In this document: positions 1 to 26,902 of the stretch, piece after piece
How positions within the stretch are numbered: position 1 is the stretch's first letter
How the letters are laid out: each line of letters opens with the position of its first letter
Sequence record: MK047718.1
From: Escherichia phage p000y
Direction: 5' to 3' (one strand)
Length of the DNA: 64,000 nt
Position numbers and translations under genes: made by a program
The notes under the pieces: model-generated
The model's database searches: none
The model's input: the letters and a program-made list of their open reading frames with translations, nothing else
What the model was told of the DNA's origin: nothing

Positions 1-2
1 GC

Positions 3-1397
3 CATAACGTAATTGTTAACTGGTGTGATATTATTCCTGACTTTGGTTCATGGTCTTGGAATGTTAACGCAATCTATGTTAAGGGTGATGAATGTCGATA
101 TAATTTCGATGGTGAAAATATCACTAACGTAGGTTCAACAGGTGGTAATGTTGTAGGAATTTATCAGTTCAAAGACTGGGAATTCTACATGGGTTCTACT
201 GATGAGGAAATTCACGAATACTGCAAAGGTCGTGATTTCGTAGAATTCCTTTACGGCAGTGCATTCAATAAATCAGAGCTTATGAATCTAATTGATTTAG
301 GTGATATGCCTAAACTTGAAAAGGCTCATGAAGTTCGTGAACTGAATCGTAGTTTTAATGCAGTTGAAATTGGCGAAGAAACTGTAACTAAATTCGCGTT
401 AACCGAACAAGGTCGAGCTCTTCAAAAAGATGAGATTTCATGGTATTTGAAAGTGAAATCAGATTCAGTTCCTCAGTTAGTTTCGGTAAATGAAAATAAT
501 TTTGAAATGGAACGTATTAAAGGTAAGCCGGCATTTGAATATATTAAATCCAAATCAAGTCTTGCTCGTCCACAAATTGTTGATGCAATTTTAGATGCAC
601 TGAAATTCAGCACGGACACTTATTTTGTAAGTCCTGAAACTGTTCGCCGTGATTTCACTAAAGAGTTCTATACGAAAGTTATTGATCGTTGTGAAAGCAT
701 TCAGCCATTGATTGATTCATTTGGTAAAATCACACACGTGAACTACACTAAAATTGGACGTCTGAAGCCAATGTTGAAACAAGCTTTAGAACATCTTATT
801 CGTTATCATAACCGTTCTCAGGGACAGTACTCTGTTATTCATGGTGACCCGAACTTCAGTAATACTATGATTACCGATAACGGCGAAGTCAAGTTTATCG
901 ACCCTCGTGGATATTTTGGTGAAACCAAGATTTACGGGCCAAAATTATATGATGAAGCTAAAGTGCTTTATGCTGTTTCAGGTTATGATGAATTCAATGC
1001 TAATCCGACCTGGGGACAGTTTACTATTGATGAAACAACTTGTAATGTGACTATTAACATCAATCCATTAGTTTACAAATATGGAAAGATGAGTTCGTTT
1101 AACGAGTATCATCATTTGGCTGTAGCAATTATCTGGATTGCATTAGGTGGTTATTTCAAGAATAATCCACTTAAAGCGGTTGCCGCATATTATAAAGGTA
1201 TGGAACTTCTGACTAAGCAATTACGTAACATGGGCCGTGTACTTCAAGACGGCTCTATTAGTTATGACGTAGCAGAACCTGTAACGGCTACTCTGATTAC
1301 AAAAAATCCTGGTAAATGGGTACTAACTGATAAAGAAACTGGTGTTTCCTATCGTCCAATCGGCGGCGATATCACTCATCAATGGGAACGAATCTAA
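3..1397 (+). CDS. Kinase-fold protein (APH/choline-kinase-like), probably 5'-truncated by the window edge
   Basis: Frame is open from nt 3 with no stop before the ATG at 189 and no clear SD at 189. Brenner-type motif HGDPNFSN...KFIDPRGYFG typical of APH/ChoK-like phosphotransferases. Confidence 0.5.
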   Translation, partial: HNVIVNWCDIIPDFGSWSWNVNAIYVKGDECRYNFDGENITNVGSTGGNVVGIYQFKDWEFYMGSTDEEIHEYCKGRDFVEFLYGSAFNKSELMNLIDLGDMPKLEKAHEVRELNRSFNAVEIGEETVTKFALTEQGRALQKDEISWYLKVKSDSVPQLVSVNENNFEMERIKGKPAFEYIKSKSSLARPQIVDAILDALKFSTDTYFVSPETVRRDFTKEFYTKVIDRCESIQPLIDSFGKITHVNYTKIGRLKPMLKQALEHLIRYHNRSQGQYSVIHGDPNFSNTMITDNGEVKFIDPRGYFGETKIYGPKLYDEAKVLYAVSGYDEFNANPTWGQFTIDETTCNVTININPLVYKYGKMSSFNEYHHLAVAIIWIALGGYFKNNPLKAVAAYYKGMELLTKQLRNMGRVLQDGSISYDVAEPVTATLITKNPGKWVLTDKETGVSYRPIGGDITHQWERI

Positions 1398-1783
1398 TGC
1401 ACCGTGTAGAAAACATGCTTAATCTTTGTTTTGATGTCGATGATTGTATAACAGAGTGGAATAACAATCGTGATTACGTGAACTTCAAACCAGACGTCGA
1501 AATGGTGTCTGCCATTAATGCCCTGTATGATGCAGGGCATACCATAACGCTTTACACTGCCCGTGGTATGAAGTCGGTAGGTCCTGGTCGTATAGCAATT
1601 GACATTCTCCCAAGTCTGATTCAGAACTTGGAAAACATTGGTTTGAAGTACCATAATTTGCTAACACATAAACCAGTATATGATTGGATTATCGACGACA
1701 AAGCTATGCGTCCTGACGAATTCAAAGCTCTTATGAATAAAGGCGAATTCGAAACATTTAAATCATATAAACCAAATCTATAA
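1397..1783 (+). CDS. Small HAD-superfamily phosphatase-like protein
   Basis: TAATG overlap with the upstream ORF. N-terminal FDVDDCIT (DxDx motif I), later TARG and IDDKA motifs consistent with a capless HAD fold. Track start 1382 is an alternative. Confidence 0.5.
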   Translation: MHRVENMLNLCFDVDDCITEWNNNRDYVNFKPDVEMVSAINALYDAGHTITLYTARGMKSVGPGRIAIDILPSLIQNLENIGLKYHNLLTHKPVYDWIIDDKAMRPDEFKALMNKGEFETFKSYKPNL

Positions 1784-1829: not shown

Positions 1830-2999
1830 ATGCAAAAAATGAATACTTTTAAAATCGGAACGAATTTTGATTTAGCTCTTCTTGATAAAATCGTAGAGCT
1901 CAATAAAACCTATCCTAATAGCTTGATAAACGAAGTATATGGCTCTACAAGAGAAATGGCTTTTGTAGCAGCCAGACCTGATTTTAGGCTTCCTGACGTT
2001 GACAAAAAGATGTTAGAAGACTACGTTAAACGTTGTAACGAATTAGGTATTTGCTTTAACTATACACTCAACACGATAAATCCTGGTTCAAAAAGAGAAC
2101 TAGTTGAGTGGAAGAAGAAAGCTATTCAGGATTATGTTCAGTATCTTTGGTCAATAGGCGTATGGCGTATTACTATCGCTAACCCTGTTGTTATGGAAAT
2201 TGTTCGTGAAGTCAATAAAGATATTGAGATTGAAGTTTCAACAATTCTACATGTCGATGCGGTAACTCAAATCAAATACTTACATGACCAATATAACATC
2301 AAAAAGGTCTGTTGCGGAATTCATAAGAACCGTTCAGTTTCTTTCCTGAAGCGTGCAGCAGAGTTTTGCAATAAGAACAATATAATATTTGAAGTTCTTG
2401 TAAATGAGTTCTGTTCTAATGCTGGTAAAGGGTATACAACACATTGTAGTTATCGTGACTCTTGCTATATTTTCCATAGTACTGATGTTACCGCTGATGA
2501 TGCTAAATCCTTAAATGGATATCCTATGCAGCACTGTATTAAAGCTCGTGATACAGACCCATTTAACTGGTTGAGAACTCGTTTTGTTCGTCCTCAAGAT
2601 TTGAAACTTTATAATGATATTGGTATCACTCAATTCAAAGTTTCAGGACGTACAGGTAGCACAGACTACATTTTGAAAGTTCTTGAAGCATACGCTTCTG
2701 AAAAGTTTGAAGGTAATTTGTTAGAACTGTGGAAGCCTTTAGAGACTATTTTCACTCTTGAAAATGAGACTGAGTTTTCACATACAGTAAATATTGAAAC
2801 CTCTTTGTTAGATGGCTTTTTAGAAAAAAGGTGGTTCAGACATCCAGATTTTGATTGTGCTAATGAAATCTGTGGGTCAACGTGTACATATTGTGAAAGG
2901 TATTATAAACGTCAATTATCTAAAAACGGGTTAGCAGAAAACTCCATATCTATTATTGATATAACTAACTCTGATGACGCTTTGAGGTACCCGGAATGA
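1830..2999 (+). CDS. Cys-rich 389-aa enzyme, peptidase-U32-like (RlhA/TrhP/UbiU family) by motif resemblance; alternatively an Fe-S protein with C-terminal CxxxCxYC
   Basis: Segments EVYGSTRE, FEVLVNEFCSNAGKGYTTHCSYRDSCY and ITQFKVSGRTGSTDYILKV resemble U32 TIM-barrel motifs as I recall them. C-terminal CANEICGSTCTYC cluster. Family call is unverified. Confidence 0.4.
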   Translation: MQKMNTFKIGTNFDLALLDKIVELNKTYPNSLINEVYGSTREMAFVAARPDFRLPDVDKKMLEDYVKRCNELGICFNYTLNTINPGSKRELVEWKKKAIQDYVQYLWSIGVWRITIANPVVMEIVREVNKDIEIEVSTILHVDAVTQIKYLHDQYNIKKVCCGIHKNRSVSFLKRAAEFCNKNNIIFEVLVNEFCSNAGKGYTTHCSYRDSCYIFHSTDVTADDAKSLNGYPMQHCIKARDTDPFNWLRTRFVRPQDLKLYNDIGITQFKVSGRTGSTDYILKVLEAYASEKFEGNLLELWKPLETIFTLENETEFSHTVNIETSLLDGFLEKRWFRHPDFDCANEICGSTCTYCERYYKRQLSKNGLAENSISIIDITNSDDALRYPE

Positions 3000-3235
3000 T
3001 TTCTAGAAAAAGTTTTAATTATAAACTTAACGAAGAGATTTTGACTATGAAACTGAACACTAACGAACAAATTCTTAAAAAGGCCCTTATGGGCCTGTTT
3101 GAAACCAAAGCGGCTAAAGTGATTAAAGAACCTGTTCAATTGGAATACTACACTGATGCATTCCTTCATAGTGTTCTTGGAAGTATAGATTCTGAAGCTT
3201 TACGTTATATCAACATTGTCAAGAAATTCAAATAA
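2996..3235 (+). CDS. Hypothetical protein (79 aa)
   Basis: ATGA overlap with the upstream gene; same-strand packing. Confidence 0.4.
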   Translation: MISRKSFNYKLNEEILTMKLNTNEQILKKALMGLFETKAAKVIKEPVQLEYYTDAFLHSVLGSIDSEALRYINIVKKFK

Positions 3236-3277
3236 GCTTTACGAATTGAGTATATAATAAATTGTATTGAGGTAAAC

Positions 3278-3994
3278 ATGGGAAAACATAACACAATGAA
3301 ATATATCAAAGCCGCAGATTTTCAAACCGCATTTAAAGCAGTCAATCGTGAAATTTTAGAAAACCCGGAATTCGTAACTGATTCTCGTATTGGACGTTGT
3401 AATGAAATTGGGTCTATGACAGTAGTTGTTGACACTCCATCATCATTCAAAATGACCGACCCACGTATTAACCGCATCTCTTATGAATATGCCGAAGACT
3501 TCTGGAAGTTTATGATTTCTGGTGGTACCAACGCAGAAGAAGCGTTTAAGGCATATCCTAATGTCGCTAAATTTATTTCTAAACCAAAATCAGATGTTTT
3601 GCCGGCGAACTTCAACACTTTCTATGGTCCTCGCATTGCGGCCCAATTACCAACTCTTCTAAAAGAACTTAAAGAAAAACCTAACTCTCGAAGAGTTGTG
3701 TTCCAAATTCTAGAAAGTTCTGATCAGGCTTTGCTTGATTCGGACGAAACACTTGAATATCCATGTACTGACTCAGTAACTTATTATATTCGTGATGGTA
3801 AGCTTTATACCCACTGTCATATGCGTTCTCAGAACTGTGCTGTTGTTATGCAGTTGGATTTTTATCTCCAAGGAAAATTACTTCATTATATCGCTAACGA
3901 ATGCGGTGTAGAAGTTGGTGATTATACTCATACCATGGTAAGTGCCCATGTGTTTGAACGTGATTTTGATTATGTTAAAGGATTCCTTGACTAA
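3278..3994 (+). CDS. 42: Deoxypyrimidylate hydroxymethylase of the thymidylate-synthase family (gp42-like dCMP hydroxymethylase)
   Basis: PNSRR, PCTDSVTYYIRD (catalytic Cys) and MRSQN...QLD motifs align with T4 gp42 PDSRR, MCTNTVQYLIRD, MRSND...RND. Sits directly upstream of the uvsX block as in T4. Appears more diverged than neighbouring core genes. Confidence 0.75.
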   Translation: MGKHNTMKYIKAADFQTAFKAVNREILENPEFVTDSRIGRCNEIGSMTVVVDTPSSFKMTDPRINRISYEYAEDFWKFMISGGTNAEEAFKAYPNVAKFISKPKSDVLPANFNTFYGPRIAAQLPTLLKELKEKPNSRRVVFQILESSDQALLDSDETLEYPCTDSVTYYIRDGKLYTHCHMRSQNCAVVMQLDFYLQGKLLHYIANECGVEVGDYTHTMVSAHVFERDFDYVKGFLD

Positions 3995-4893
3995 TGGCTA
4001 TTTTCCGCGTACCAATCTTGAGTATGCGGTCTTATGAAACTGGACAGTATGCTATCCTTAAGGATGGCAACTTCCAACTTCATTTGCACCGTGCTAATCC
4101 GGGTGATGTGATTACATATCCACGTAATGCATCTGATATTAAAGAATGCGAACGTCTTTTCCCAGAATTTAAGTTTGTTCCATTATGGTATAAAGATAAC
4201 GCGTATAACACTCGTAAATATTTCTGGACTGAAAATGAATTTGTGGTTGATTCATTAATTGATTATTATGATTGTGATTTTCTAATCACAGATATCACTG
4301 GTTATGGCGGCGCTTTTGATGTGGAATTCAATTTCAATATCACTGCAGACCCTAATAAACCACGTTTTTATATTGATGAATTCTTAAAAACCGACATGTT
4401 GTCTGTTAATCGTTCACTTCAAACTACTGTGTTGAATGAACGTCAAAAAGAAGTGCTGGTTAACGCAGGTGCAGATGGTAATAAGATTATCGTAACGCAG
4501 AAAGTTATACGTCCTTCCATCATGCAGCGTCTTGTAGGTGATTTGGCTCCTATTCATCTAGATGGTATTTTTCATCCATTTCGAATTAGTGACCCATGTT
4601 ATCGTTTTGAACAAGTGGTTGAATGTGCAATTCAATTAGGTCAACCGCTTTATATAACCGATCCAAATAATAGCTTCGACAGAAATAAGTATCCTGAAGA
4701 AGCGCTGATTCGAATTTTTAAACCAACTAAAACTGAGTACTATCAAATTCTTAAAGGACGTCCGAAAATTCAATATTTCGAAAATCCTGAAGAAGTATTC
4801 CATCCAGGTCTTGGTGAGTTCATCTACTTTAATGCTTTAATTTCTTCGCCGTATAATATACCTAAATACGAAGATGTCGTAATCGAGGAATAA
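3994..4893 (+). CDS. Hypothetical protein (299 aa) in the position T4 uses for beta-glucosyltransferase
   Basis: TAATG-coupled to gene 42. No resemblance to T4 beta-GT that I can see. Contains a YYDCDFLITD (DxD-like) segment. Function is inferred only from position. Confidence 0.5.
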   Translation: MAIFRVPILSMRSYETGQYAILKDGNFQLHLHRANPGDVITYPRNASDIKECERLFPEFKFVPLWYKDNAYNTRKYFWTENEFVVDSLIDYYDCDFLITDITGYGGAFDVEFNFNITADPNKPRFYIDEFLKTDMLSVNRSLQTTVLNERQKEVLVNAGADGNKIIVTQKVIRPSIMQRLVGDLAPIHLDGIFHPFRISDPCYRFEQVVECAIQLGQPLYITDPNNSFDRNKYPEEALIRIFKPTKTEYYQILKGRPKIQYFENPEEVFHPGLGEFIYFNALISSPYNIPKYEDVVIEE

Positions 4894-4894
4894 A

Positions 4895-5443
4895 ATGGCT
4901 AAAATTATTTTAGTAGATGGCCCGGATAATGCTGGTAAAACAACTTTCATTAATGACATAATGGAAATTAGTGAAAGATATGTAAAGATTGATTTCCCTA
5001 AACGAACAGTTGATGGACGTTTCGATGTTAAGTCTCGAAATGAAGTTGGCTGTTTCGAAACGATGTTGAATTATTTAGACCCTACTAAGATTTATCTGTT
5101 AGACCGTGGATATATTAGTAACTGGGTTTATGGACGTATTCGACAAGATGCGGACTCGATTCTTGACGTTTATGAACAGGACTATGTTCGTCTTTGCCAA
5201 AACCATGATGTGTTCACAATTATTTTAACACGTAACGAAATGACTGAAAGTTTTGAAGACGACCTTATTACTTTGTCTTCATTCGGTTTTAATACAGTCA
5301 TTTCACATTTTGAAGAGTTTGCAATTCATAACAAAATCCAAACGTATCAATTACTTAATCATGATGGTGCTAACAAAGTTATAGGATTTAATGCAAGCGA
5401 ACGTAATTATTTGATTACAGAAATTATCAAATGGGCTCGTTAA
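4895..5443 (+). CDS. P-loop nucleotide kinase, thymidylate-kinase-like
   Basis: Walker A GPDNAGKTT and LLDRGYISNWVYG (TMK-like DR(Y/H)xxSxxxYxG) motifs; 182 aa. Confidence 0.5.
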   Translation: MAKIILVDGPDNAGKTTFINDIMEISERYVKIDFPKRTVDGRFDVKSRNEVGCFETMLNYLDPTKIYLLDRGYISNWVYGRIRQDADSILDVYEQDYVRLCQNHDVFTIILTRNEMTESFEDDLITLSSFGFNTVISHFEEFAIHNKIQTYQLLNHDGANKVIGFNASERNYLITEIIKWAR

Positions 5444-5461
5444 GAGCCATTTAAAGTTTTA

Positions 5462-5488
5462 AATGCTGTATAACCCTTAGTATATAAT
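5462..5488 (+). promoter_or_regulatory. Candidate MotA-dependent middle promoter upstream of uvsX
   Basis: MotA-box-like aaTGCTgtA with TATAAT starting 19 nt after the TGCT core; same spacing as the candidate upstream of gene 39. Confidence 0.4.
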
Positions 5489-5541
5489 CATCTTATCTTT
5501 TAAACATGAGTAAAATATAATGATGCCTATGGAAAAATACA

Positions 5542-6714
5542 ATGTCTGATTTAAAATCTCGTCTGATTAAAGCTTCTACTTCTAAAATGACTGCAGACTT
5601 GACTAAGTCTAAGCTGTTTAATAATCGTGATGAAGTCCCTACTCGTATTCCGATGTTGAATATTGCATTAGGTGGTGCACTGAATGCCGGGTTGCAATCA
5701 GGCTTAACTATTTTTGCTGCTCCTTCTAAACACTTTAAAACGTTGTTTGGGCTGACCATGGTTGCAGCATATATGAAGAAATATAAAGATGCAATCTGTT
5801 TGTTTTATGACTCAGAATTCGGTGCTTCAGAATCTTATTTTCGTTCAATGGGTGTTGATTTAGACCGTGTAGTTCATACTCCGATTCAATCTGTCGAACA
5901 ACTTAAAGTTGATATGACTAATCAGCTTGACGCGATTGAACGCGGTGATAAAGTTATTATCTTTATCGATTCAATCGGTAATACTGCATCTAAGAAAGAA
6001 ACCGAAGATGCGTTGAACGAGAAAGTTGTAGGTGATATGTCTCGTGCTAAGGCACTTAAATCTCTGTTTCGCATTGTGACCCCGTATCTGACTATTAAAG
6101 ATATTCCGTGTGTTGCAATTAACCATACCGCAATGGAAATCGGCGGACTATATCCTAAAGAGATTATGGGTGGTGGTACAGGTATTCTTTACTCTGCTAA
6201 CACTGTATTCTTTATCTCTAAACGTCAGGTTAAAGAAGGTACAGAATTGACCGGTTATGACTTCACGTTGAAAGCAGAAAAATCTCGTACAGTTAAAGAG
6301 AAATCTACTTTCCCAATCACAGTTAATTTTGATGGTGGTATCGACCCATTCAGTGGCTTGTTAGAAATGGCAACTGAAATTGGTTTTGTAGTTAAGCCTA
6401 AAGCCGGGTGGTATGCTCGTGAATTCCTTGACGAAGAAACAGGTGAAATGATTCGTGAAGAGAAATCATGGCGTGCTAAAGCTACTGATTGTGTAGAATT
6501 CTGGGGACCGTTGTTTAAACACAAACCTTTCCGTGACGCAATTGAAACTAAATATAAACTAGGTGCTATCTCTTCTATTAAAGAAGTTGATGACGCTGTT
6601 AATGACCTTATTAATTGCAAAGCAACAACTAAAGTTCCGGTTAAAACTTCTGATGCTCCGTCTGCAGCAGATATAGAAAACGACCTTGATGAAATGGAAG
6701 ATTTCGATGAATAA
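5542..6714 (+). CDS. uvsX: UvsX RecA-like recombinase
   Basis: 390 aa; strong similarity to T4 UvsX from the N-terminus onward; synteny 42-uvsX-40-41. Confidence 0.95.
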   Translation: MSDLKSRLIKASTSKMTADLTKSKLFNNRDEVPTRIPMLNIALGGALNAGLQSGLTIFAAPSKHFKTLFGLTMVAAYMKKYKDAICLFYDSEFGASESYFRSMGVDLDRVVHTPIQSVEQLKVDMTNQLDAIERGDKVIIFIDSIGNTASKKETEDALNEKVVGDMSRAKALKSLFRIVTPYLTIKDIPCVAINHTAMEIGGLYPKEIMGGGTGILYSANTVFFISKRQVKEGTELTGYDFTLKAEKSRTVKEKSTFPITVNFDGGIDPFSGLLEMATEIGFVVKPKAGWYAREFLDEETGEMIREEKSWRAKATDCVEFWGPLFKHKPFRDAIETKYKLGAISSIKEVDDAVNDLINCKATTKVPVKTSDAPSAADIENDLDEMEDFDE

Positions 6715-8525: not shown

Positions 8526-8588
8526 CGGGGTTTACATCTTCCTCTAGGCATGATATGATGAACTTACACCAACCAAGAGGAAAACATT

Positions 8589-8963
8589 ATGAATATGTCT
8601 CAAGCAATTTTTACTGCAATCACCGAAAACACAACTGTTGAAGTAGTTTCTCCACTGGCAACCTACGTTATTCTTGCTCCTAAAACTATTGTATCTCGTA
8701 TGGAAAACATGGGCAAACGTATCGTACAAATAGTTGGAGCTGGAAATCAAAAACTTGATTATCTACGAACCATCAAAGCTTATGAACATTTCCAACTCGA
8801 AAAAGGTTCTCCTATCCAGGTAGAACTCGTAAATGGTGATATCGTTCGAGCAATGTTCCATCATTTCTATGCATTGAATGACCCATCTAAAGCGGTTCGT
8901 TTAATTGCATACGACGCAAACCAAAAAGAAATCAACGCAGATGTATCTAAATTACGTTTTTAA
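8589..8963 (+). CDS. Hypothetical protein (124 aa)
   Basis: ORF with an upstream early-promoter-like element and a purine-rich RBS. Confidence 0.5.
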   Translation: MNMSQAIFTAITENTTVEVVSPLATYVILAPKTIVSRMENMGKRIVQIVGAGNQKLDYLRTIKAYEHFQLEKGSPIQVELVNGDIVRAMFHHFYALNDPSKAVRLIAYDANQKEINADVSKLRF

Positions 8964-25801: not shown

Positions 25802-26902
25802 ATGAAAGTTATGTTTATCCCATCTCGCGCAGTCCCATTTAACCCAGAACGTGTACAAGGTGGTCTTGAAGCAGTACATTTAAATGTGTTGAAATATTTA
25901 GTTTCTATCTGTGCTGATATTGATTATATCGGTTTTGATAATGACACATTTGGTGATTGGAAGGTTAATCATCATCCTGTTGGTCATCTGACAAAATTCA
26001 GTCTAGGTATGAGTTATACTATGGCTCGTAAGATTGTTGAACTAGCCGGCATCCATGAATACGATTTCGTTGTTACTATGGAACCGACTAAACTAACCGT
26101 TCAGGCAATTAAAGACGCAGGCCTCTCTAAAGTTCATAAGAATTTTATGGCAACACCATTTGAACCGGTATCTCGTGGCATTGTTCAAATTTGGGACCAG
26201 ACTATTCAAATTCATAAGAATGGTGGTAAGAGTTATGCTCCTACTAAAGCCTTCCGTGAATTTGAACGCAAATATTGTTATATGACTTCAGGTCTGACTG
26301 ACAAAATTGATTATGATTATTGGCGAGCAAATCCGTTGTTTGAAGCCGAAGATTATCCGGTTATTTGTTTGAATGAGAAACCTGAAGTTCTTCCGGCGAC
26401 GGATCTGATTATTAGTGCACAACGTTATGACACTAAAATGCGTCGTACTGATGTTGCTCTTGAAGCGATTAAAGCACTAGGCGAAAATGGTGCAGGATAC
26501 TGTCCTAGTAAATGGGCACCACCAGCTAAATATCCTGTTATTATTGATGCTCCACACAGTGAAATCATGGAACGCCTTAAAACAGCTAAAGCACTTATTA
26601 ATACGTGTCCTGACACAGGTACGGTAGAGAATAGTTCTATTGAAGCCATCTCTAAAGGTGTCCCTGTAATCCAGTTAGTTTTTAAGGATTATCCTCATGC
26701 GACATTTGAATACGACCCAGATACTGTGCGTGTAGAAATTGATTCCTCTACTCCTAAGAAAGAAGTAGTTGCGCTTTACACAAAAGCTGTATTAGAATTC
26801 ACTGACACATACGAAGCTCGAGTTAAACGTGCTGAAGCAGTATGGAAGAAGTATAACCGAGATGCAGTTGTTGCGATGTGGGATAAAATCTTCACAGCGT
26901 AA
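25802..26902 (+). CDS. GT-B fold glycosyltransferase (GT4-like), candidate DNA sugar transferase
   Basis: C-terminal DTGTVENSSIEAISKGVPVI resembles the GT-B EX7E / donor-binding segment; 366 aa; inserted between 39 and rIIA. Confidence 0.55.
   Translation: MKVMFIPSRAVPFNPERVQGGLEAVHLNVLKYLVSICADIDYIGFDNDTFGDWKVNHHPVGHLTKFSLGMSYTMARKIVELAGIHEYDFVVTMEPTKLTVQAIKDAGLSKVHKNFMATPFEPVSRGIVQIWDQTIQIHKNGGKSYAPTKAFREFERKYCYMTSGLTDKIDYDYWRANPLFEAEDYPVICLNEKPEVLPATDLIISAQRYDTKMRRTDVALEAIKALGENGAGYCPSKWAPPAKYPVIIDAPHSEIMERLKTAKALINTCPDTGTVENSSIEAISKGVPVIQLVFKDYPHATFEYDPDTVRVEIDSSTPKKEVVALYTKAVLEFTDTYEARVKRAEAVWKKYNRDAVVAMWDKIFTA

Follow-up and report, generated by a model that had tools for sequence, protein, structure and literature searches.

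Predicted roles for the two genes between the dCMP 5-hydroxylase and uvsX of Escherichia phage p000y

Which enzymes occupy the slot where T4 carries beta-gt, and what might they contribute to DNA modification? The question arises in Escherichia phage p000y (MK047718.1), of which a stretch of 64,000 nucleotides, here called the window, was analysed. Two open reading frames (ORFs) on the + strand, encoding proteins of 299 (3994-4893) and 182 (4895-5443) amino acids, lie between a ThyA-family gene (3278-3994) and uvsX (5542-6714), both on the same strand. The initial annotation placed both ORFs in the beta-gt slot at exactly these coordinates, and saw in the second a hint at phosphorylation of a modified nucleotide or of a hydroxymethyl (hm) pyrimidine in DNA. 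We favor a different reading, to which we assign a probability of roughly 0.6 for all of its parts together: the two genes are part of the cluster by which RB69-like phages hypermodify their DNA with arabinosyl-5-hydroxycytosine, the first encoding a predicted glycosyltransferase, and the second encoding a probable kinase of free nucleotides and not a DNA-base kinase of the type that acts on 5-hydroxymethyldeoxyuridine (5-hmdU). The three genes on which the argument turns are the following.

3278..3994, + strand: ThyA-superfamily dCMP 5-hydroxylase (5-hydroxy-dCMP synthase), from phmmer searches of the PDB and alignment with E. coli ThyA
3994..4893, + strand: predicted 299-residue GT-B fold glycosyltransferase of the RB69 gp46:47 / DLP3 gp79 / Thanatos TH1_063 family, from its fold and PHROG 3891
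4895..5443, + strand: predicted 182-residue P-loop kinase with the thymidylate kinase (TMK) fold, RB69 gp45 / DLP3 gp78 / Thanatos TH1_064 family, from its fold, motifs and PHROG 761

The hydroxylase gene and the modified base

The product of the ThyA-family gene matches PDB entries 9IQC, 9IR2 and 9IQU over its full length (phmmer E=2.9e-160, about 97% identity), 9IQC being the solved enzyme of phage HY126. Aligned to E. coli ThyA, it carries the substitutions D169N (RSQN vs RSCD) and N177D and keeps the catalytic cysteine (Cys146, in PC(T)). It thus combines the ThyA fold with the three residues that characterize 5-hydroxy-dCMP (5hodCMP) synthases. RB69 gp48, the HY126 homolog and other D169N homologs make 5hodCMP with flavin and O2 (Lee et al. 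2026, PMC13326640). RB69 DNA contains mono- and di-arabinofuranosyl-5-hydroxycytosine, in which the sugar is ether-linked via the oxygen added by the hydroxylase, and other genes of the cluster produce UDP-arabinofuranose (PMC13326640). The phage pathway, which replaces viral cytosine by a sugar-bearing 5-hydroxycytosine, has been described before. Because the neighbour of the two ORFs is a D169N dCMP 5-hydroxylase that is 97% identical to 9IQC, the modified base should be arabinosyl-5-hydroxycytosine and not hydroxymethylcytosine. The gene had been labelled 42 and taken for a hydroxymethylase; this label has to be given up, and with it the premise that an hm-pyrimidine is the substrate of the kinase.

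The stop codon of the ThyA-like gene and the start codon of the 299-residue ORF overlap by one base (TAATG at 3992-3996), and a single base separates the stop codon of the latter from the ATG of the kinase gene. A promoter and terminator scan of positions 2900-5700 returned nothing above shuffled expectation. The first 8.5 kb of the window share 98-99% nucleotide identity with the deposited sequences of about 150 phages of Escherichia and Shigella that belong to the RB69 group (Mosigvirus), among them p000v, APCEc01 and PECP20. HY126 is also among the relatives; its cluster has the same gene order and its kinase is 97.8% identical to the 182-residue protein. By sequence, the window is that of an RB69/HY126-like Mosigvirus.

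The predicted glycosyltransferase and the kinase

By sequence, the 299-residue protein matches no family of Pfam or NCBIfam and no chain in the PDB, and Pfam glycosyltransferase models such as Glycos_transf_1 are matched by none of 41 diverse members of its family at E<=0.01. It falls into PHROG 3891 (E=1.6e-155), which is annotated as being of unknown function, and 136 relatives were found in a large protein collection. An AlphaFold2 model built with 41 sequences (predicted local distance difference test, pLDDT, 94.6; predicted TM-score 0.89) shows two Rossmann-like domains in the topology of GT-B glycosyltransferases. Membership in PHROG 3891 and the position beside a D169N ThyA homolog place the protein with RB69 gp46:47, which was named, putatively, arabinosyltransferase 1 (Table 1 of PMC13326640). 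Our fold result reproduces that assignment, so that the protein can no longer be listed as unknown, as it was at first. Nothing substantive separates the copy in the window from RB69 gp46:47, DLP3 gp79 and Thanatos TH1_063, except that it is an intact single ORF whereas the GenBank record of RB69 splits the gene through a sequencing error. In agreement with the initial annotation, there is neither sequence similarity nor close structural similarity to T4 beta-glucosyltransferase (GT63), which lies outside the top 60 structural matches of the model.

Based on fold, synteny and phyletic pattern, we predict a small GT-B glycosyltransferase of the GT4-like, retaining type for the 299-residue protein. 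Such a scaffold is in keeping with the alpha linkage that was reported, from nuclear magnetic resonance, for the arabinose next to the base (PMC13326640). TH1_063 is the only glycosyltransferase identified within the 12.9-kb cluster locus examined in Thanatos, the DNA of which is mono-pentosylated. TH1_065 was considered as a second glycosyltransferase of that phage and rejected; it is a U32 protein. In the proposed mechanism, the 299-residue protein would move the first alpha-linked arabinofuranose from UDP-arabinofuranose onto the 5-OH of 5-hydroxycytosine. By transferring the first sugar it would fill the role that beta-gt has in T4, and we consider it a predicted functional analogue of that enzyme.

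The 182-residue protein has a P-loop (GPDNAGKT, residues 8-15) and the motif DRGYISNWVYG. The initial annotation gave the latter as DR...S...Y.G, which is close, but the actual pattern is DR...S...YG. The protein belongs to PHROG 761, annotated as thymidylate kinase (E=4e-45). Across 23 relatives, 37 of the 182 positions are invariant, including GPDNAGKT, FPK(R), GR, RNEV, FET, DR, SN-VY, R113 and FxDDLI. The AlphaFold2 model (pLDDT 87.3) has low-confidence loops at residues 37-41 and about 121-130, which are LID-like regions, and adopts the three-dimensional fold of TMK, its best structural match. Searched with the family profile, TMKs of vaccinia virus and yeast are matched at overall E-values of 0.005-0.03. 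The Asp of the P-loop and FPKR align to LDKSGKTT and FPQR of the vaccinia enzyme; DRG is aligned to DRY of yeast TMK only, in an alignment below significance. All elements of the TMK motif set (a P-loop with an acidic residue, the Arg of the FPxR region and the DR motif) are thus present. In TMK these residues contact the 3'-OH and the 5'-phosphate of a free deoxynucleotide. Since the P-loop Asp, FPKR and DRG are retained, we infer that the acceptor is a free mononucleotide rather than DNA.

The divergence from known enzymes is considerable. Identity to TMKs of vaccinia virus, yeast, human and bacteria is 13-19%, an Asn replaces the P-loop Arg of class I TMKs, and the invariant motifs SRNEV, TRN and FEDDLI are specific to the 182-residue family. 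An assignment as an ordinary TMK by sequence was tried and rejected, as searches of Pfam, NCBIfam and the PDB gave marginal N-terminal matches only, whether the query was the single sequence or the profile. The positional counterpart is RB69 gp45 / DLP3 gp78 (called nucleotide kinase in PMC13326640), a TMK-like gene that adjoins gp46:47 in RB69. Such counterparts always belong to the 5-hydroxycytosine cluster, and RL38J1 gp214 may be a further one. Comparison with the T4 gp1 deoxynucleoside-monophosphate (dNMP) kinase (PDB 1dek/1del), which the initial annotation had suggested, revealed neither structural nor sequence similarity. T4 gp1 is also a phage-encoded kinase for modified dCMP, and its RB69 homolog phosphorylates 5hodCMP (PMC13326640). 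That the 182-residue protein is a second kinase, beside a kinase of the gp1 type, was recognized correctly from the start. Its fold and motifs suggest that it is a probable dNMP kinase of the pathway with a highly diverged TMK fold. With ATP as phosphate donor, it would act on a free pyrimidine deoxynucleoside monophosphate of the pathway, most likely 5hodCMP or a derivative, which would be fed toward the triphosphate.

The genes for the hydroxylase, the transferase and the kinase cluster in nearly all related phages, Morganella phage MP1 being an exception. The trio is adjacent in 15 of the 18 IMG/VR loci, as well as in HY126 and Thanatos, which bears out the proposal that the kinase is tied to pyrimidine hypermodification. 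In a phage collection, the kinase occurs in 343 records and the transferase in 348, with host and genus counts that match (the overlap was compared by counts and not record by record); the flanking genes are shared, at the DNA level, by about 420 T4-like records besides these. Adjacency of kinase and transferase is not universal, because the kinase gene of JS98-, F48- and phiP4-3-type phages lies upstream of the hydroxylase gene and not after the transferase gene. The kinase family is narrow, since its profile found only 293 relatives among 1.84 billion representatives. MP1 (NC_031020) encodes an intact kinase with all of the invariant motifs between DNA polymerase and uvsX (L043:20500-21030), and its congener Rgz1 has the full cluster, with a kinase that is 58.6% identical to the MP1 copy.

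Two further sets of relatives were encountered. Some members of the kinase family (P0179, P0180, P0185, P0187, P0189, P0194, P0196 and P0235) are fused to a C-terminal MBD4-like HhH-GPD DNA-glycosylase domain with the motifs WKFF..., PLGLQN and GLGKYA-DS; hhalign places their kinase part in the same family (E=2e-24). Two scans of viral contigs for the genomic context of these fusions found nothing, and one metagenome scan found three loci. The best of these (L044:25-1089) has genes for PolA, a methyltransferase, a DnaN-like protein and DnaB as neighbours. A distant relative is encoded in a nucleotide-pool module (L023:6001-9552) on an IMG/VR contig of 47.8 kb that is not T4-like. Its module includes a MazG-like pyrophosphohydrolase (NTPase), a ThyA homolog, a dCMP-deaminase fusion and a PolA with a UDG domain. 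The ThyA homolog keeps Asp169 and has Asp at 177, and is thus of the dCMP type and not a hydroxylase. The module is probably another cytosine-replacement system.

Competing readings of the transferase and the kinase

Several observations weigh against the roles that we propose. Neither the 299- nor the 182-residue family has a demonstrated activity in the papers surveyed, He et al. 2026 and Mahler et al. 2025 not being among them. Individual glycosyltransferases of DLP3 gave no arabinosylation of DNA containing 5-hydroxycytosine (5hoC-DNA; Lee et al., PMC13326640). Purified Thanatos TH1_063, 47.8% identical to the 299-residue protein, reportedly converted UTP and xylose-1-phosphate to UDP-xylose in vitro, as seen by liquid chromatography-mass spectrometry, and transferred no xylose to DNA or dCMP (PMC12838424). 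The 182-residue protein does not match PF02223 at E<=0.1 and scores 15.7 bits against TIGR00041, over the P-loop only, where the cut-off is 83.25 bits; in the suggested comparison with TMK, the structure therefore agreed and the hidden Markov models did not. The gp1-type kinase of RB69 turns 5hodCMP into 5hodCDP, and this kinase together with the hydroxylase suffices for incorporation of 5hoC into the DNA of E. coli (PMC13326640), so that another kinase for 5hodCMP seems redundant and not strictly required. In addition, no transferase, ThyA-like hydroxylase or arabinose genes were found in the 150 of 163 kb of MP1 that were searched. The TH1_063 assay would be explained if the 299-residue protein supplied the activated sugar, as a UDP-pentose pyrophosphorylase, instead of transferring it. 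We regard this as very improbable, given that the fold is that of a GT-B glycosyltransferase and not of a nucleotidyltransferase, with which the claim for TH1_063 is hard to reconcile. The cluster already has a pyrophosphorylase domain in the AfhE / gp52:53 protein, reported to be active in HY126 (PMC13326640), and the assay was a single end-point measurement with a non-native sugar, the product of which could, in our view, stem from a contaminating host enzyme. The inactivity of single glycosyltransferases on 5hoC-DNA could instead mean that the first arabinose is added to the mononucleotide. The transferase would then glycosylate 5hodCMP, the 182-residue kinase would accept an arabinosyl-5hodCMP that is too bulky for the gp1-type kinase, and the polymerase would incorporate a pre-glycosylated dCTP analogue. 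The data of Lee et al. do not separate arabinosylation at the nucleotide level from a post-replicative first arabinosylation (PMC13326640), and such a route accounts for a second, dedicated dNMP kinase that travels with the transferase, its apparent redundancy with gp1 included. The kinase motifs, which imply a free nucleotide acceptor, are compatible with it, as is the size of the transferase, which is small for a DNA glycosyltransferase (299 residues vs 351-400 for T4 beta- and alpha-gt; PMC6024577). Nevertheless, we consider this route rather unlikely: the characterised phage DNA glycosylations are all post-replicative, a section heading in PMC13326640 places the biosynthesis of the tri-arabinosyl form on DNA, the kinase and transferase genes are not adjacent in JS98-, F48- and phiP4-3-type phages, and MP1 keeps the kinase without the transferase. 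If it were correct, it would provide the first case of a DNA glycosylation pathway that acts before replication.

The retention of an intact kinase in MP1, without the transferase and the hydroxylase, also keeps alive a generic TMK role, in which the 182-residue protein would be a general pyrimidine dNMP kinase (acting, e.g., on dTMP or dUMP) that boosts supply, and its place in the cluster would reflect no more than shared early/middle expression. This is a less probable explanation. In its favor, TMK is the best structural match, and 5hodCMP is already a substrate of the gp1 homolog in RB69 (PMC13326640). It does not sit well with the closely similar record counts and matching hosts of kinase and transferase, set against some 420 other T4-like records with the flanking genes. 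Moreover, these phages already own a gp1-type kinase, which phosphorylates dTMP in T4, and the combination of about 37 invariant residues in 182 with the failure of the TMK models suggests a specialised site. Phosphorylation of 5-hydroxycytosine within polymer DNA, by analogy with the 5-hmdU DNA kinases (5-HMUDK) that the initial annotation had invoked, is a disfavoured possibility to which we attach hardly any weight. The 5-HMUDK enzymes (M6 gp54, ViI gp67 and SP10 gp186) are likewise small phage P-loop kinases within pyrimidine hypermodification clusters, and the fusions of the kinase to HhH-GPD domains recall the pairing of 5-HMUDK with an HhH-fold transferase (PMC8989533). The hhalign comparison of the kinase family with M6 gp54 (82% probability, E=1e-5) covers 81 columns of the N-terminal P-loop half only and is comparable in strength to the match to E. 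coli TMK (78% probability, E=1.8e-5, 25 P-loop columns), and the fused relatives match M6 gp54 no better. Kinship with 5-HMUDK was therefore rejected: the 182-residue protein is not homologous over its full length to M6 gp54 or the homologs of that kinase, and it retains the TMK residues for a free 3'-OH and 5'-phosphate. Its gene also keeps different company. A 5-HMUDK gene is accompanied by genes for an aGPT-Pplase or amino-acid:DNA transferase and a dUMP hydroxymethylase; here the neighbours are the dCMP 5-hydroxylase, the GT-B transferase and the genes for UDP-arabinose synthesis, and the annotation of the homologous 50 kb in p000v lists no aGPT-Pplase. The chemistry differs as well, in that 5-HMUDK turns a hydroxymethyl group of polymer DNA into a leaving group by phosphorylation, a step that the 5-hydroxycytosine pathway does not need. 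Because the 5-oxygen is kept as the glycosidic bridge (PMC13326640), phosphorylating the 5-OH as a leaving group would be chemically senseless. In our assessment, the 182-residue protein is best read as a dNMP kinase dedicated to the pathway, with 5hodCMP or a derivative of it as substrate.

Other genes of the cluster and their significance

Further genes of the pathway were identified upstream of the hydroxylase gene and, in one case, at a distance from it.

1..1397, + strand: C-terminal ~465 codons of a bifunctional arabinose-5-phosphate kinase / UDP-arabinose pyrophosphorylase (AfhE / RB69 gp52:53 homolog), PHROG 4098
1397..1783, + strand: HAD-type phosphatase (AfhF / RB69 gp51 homolog), PHROG 1238 (E=3e-43), with positions from the p000v and CAU_ECP01 annotation
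1830..2999, + strand: U32-peptidase-family protein (RB69 gp50 homolog), Pfam Peptidase_U32 (E=7e-11) and a weak UbiU match
2996..3235, + strand: conserved small ORF of 79 residues (RB69 gp49 homolog), PHROG 8601 (E=2e-50)
25802..26902, + strand: second glycosyltransferase, 366 residues (RB69 gp3 / ORF003c type), from phmmer matches to PDB 9IQZ/9IR0

The product of 1-1397 matches positions 161-559 of the PHROG 4098 profile (E=1.9e-197) and gives weak matches to APH/kinase families of Pfam; the p000v annotation agrees, and the function is taken from the homolog described in PMC13326640. The frame is open from base 3, and the listed ORF of 402 residues is therefore part of a protein of about 561 residues that extends beyond the start of the window. 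AfhF of HY126 is reported to convert arabinofuranose-1,5-bisphosphate to arabinofuranose-1-phosphate (as cited in PMC13326640). The 366-residue glycosyltransferase, encoded between topoisomerase and rIIA, is essentially identical to the HY126 phage glycosyltransferase of 9IQZ/9IR0 (E=4e-248), and this type was proposed to be the second arabinosyltransferase (PMC13326640, PMC6024577). The 79-residue ORF lies between the U32 gene and the hydroxylase gene, and homologs occur at the same position in several loci. It does not encode a chorismate mutase, because one locus (L011) has both genes side by side.

No other protein of the cluster is as conserved as the U32 protein, which keeps at least 80.7% identity in 12 lineages that range from phages of E. 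coli to Thanatos, a Shewanella phage. Its invariant residues include 13 Cys, some of which form a C-terminal CX4CX3CX2C cluster. A gene for a type II chorismate mutase lies directly beside the U32 gene in 11 distinct loci examined outside Mosigvirus (e.g., the U32 and mutase pairs L025:3667-4827 and 5023-5400, and L006:7462-8598 and 8553-8849), and the chorismate mutase of Rgz1 matches Pfam CM_2 (E=5.9e-12). The U32 enzymes TrhP, RlhA and UbiU/V are O2-independent hydroxylases, and hydroxylation by TrhP and UbiU/V depends on prephenate, the product of chorismate mutase. These relatives and the neighbouring mutase gene suggest an anaerobic route to 5-hydroxycytosine, and the U32 protein may be a candidate anaerobic C5-hydroxylase that serves as a backup to the 5hodCMP synthase, which needs O2. 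In Lee et al. (2026) the protein is called a sugar or heterocycle reductase, and no mention is made of U32, prephenate or chorismate (PMC13326640).

Both genes in the beta-gt slot were already known, because their folds and proposed roles were published between 2018 and 2026 (PMC6024577, PMC13326640) and the window is near-identical to phages that have been studied. The main value of the analysis is corrective: the hydroxymethylase label and the idea of an hm-pyrimidine kinase do not apply to this locus. Arabinosyl-5-hydroxycytosine shields a large group of T4-like phages, many of which serve in therapy collections, from restriction enzymes, DNA glycosylases and some CRISPR systems. The hydroxylase and sugar-activation steps of the pathway were solved in 2025-2026. 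Settling which enzyme adds the first sugar, and to which acceptor, together with the role of the second kinase, would complete the pathway and would tell whether DNA glycosylation can be pre-replicative.

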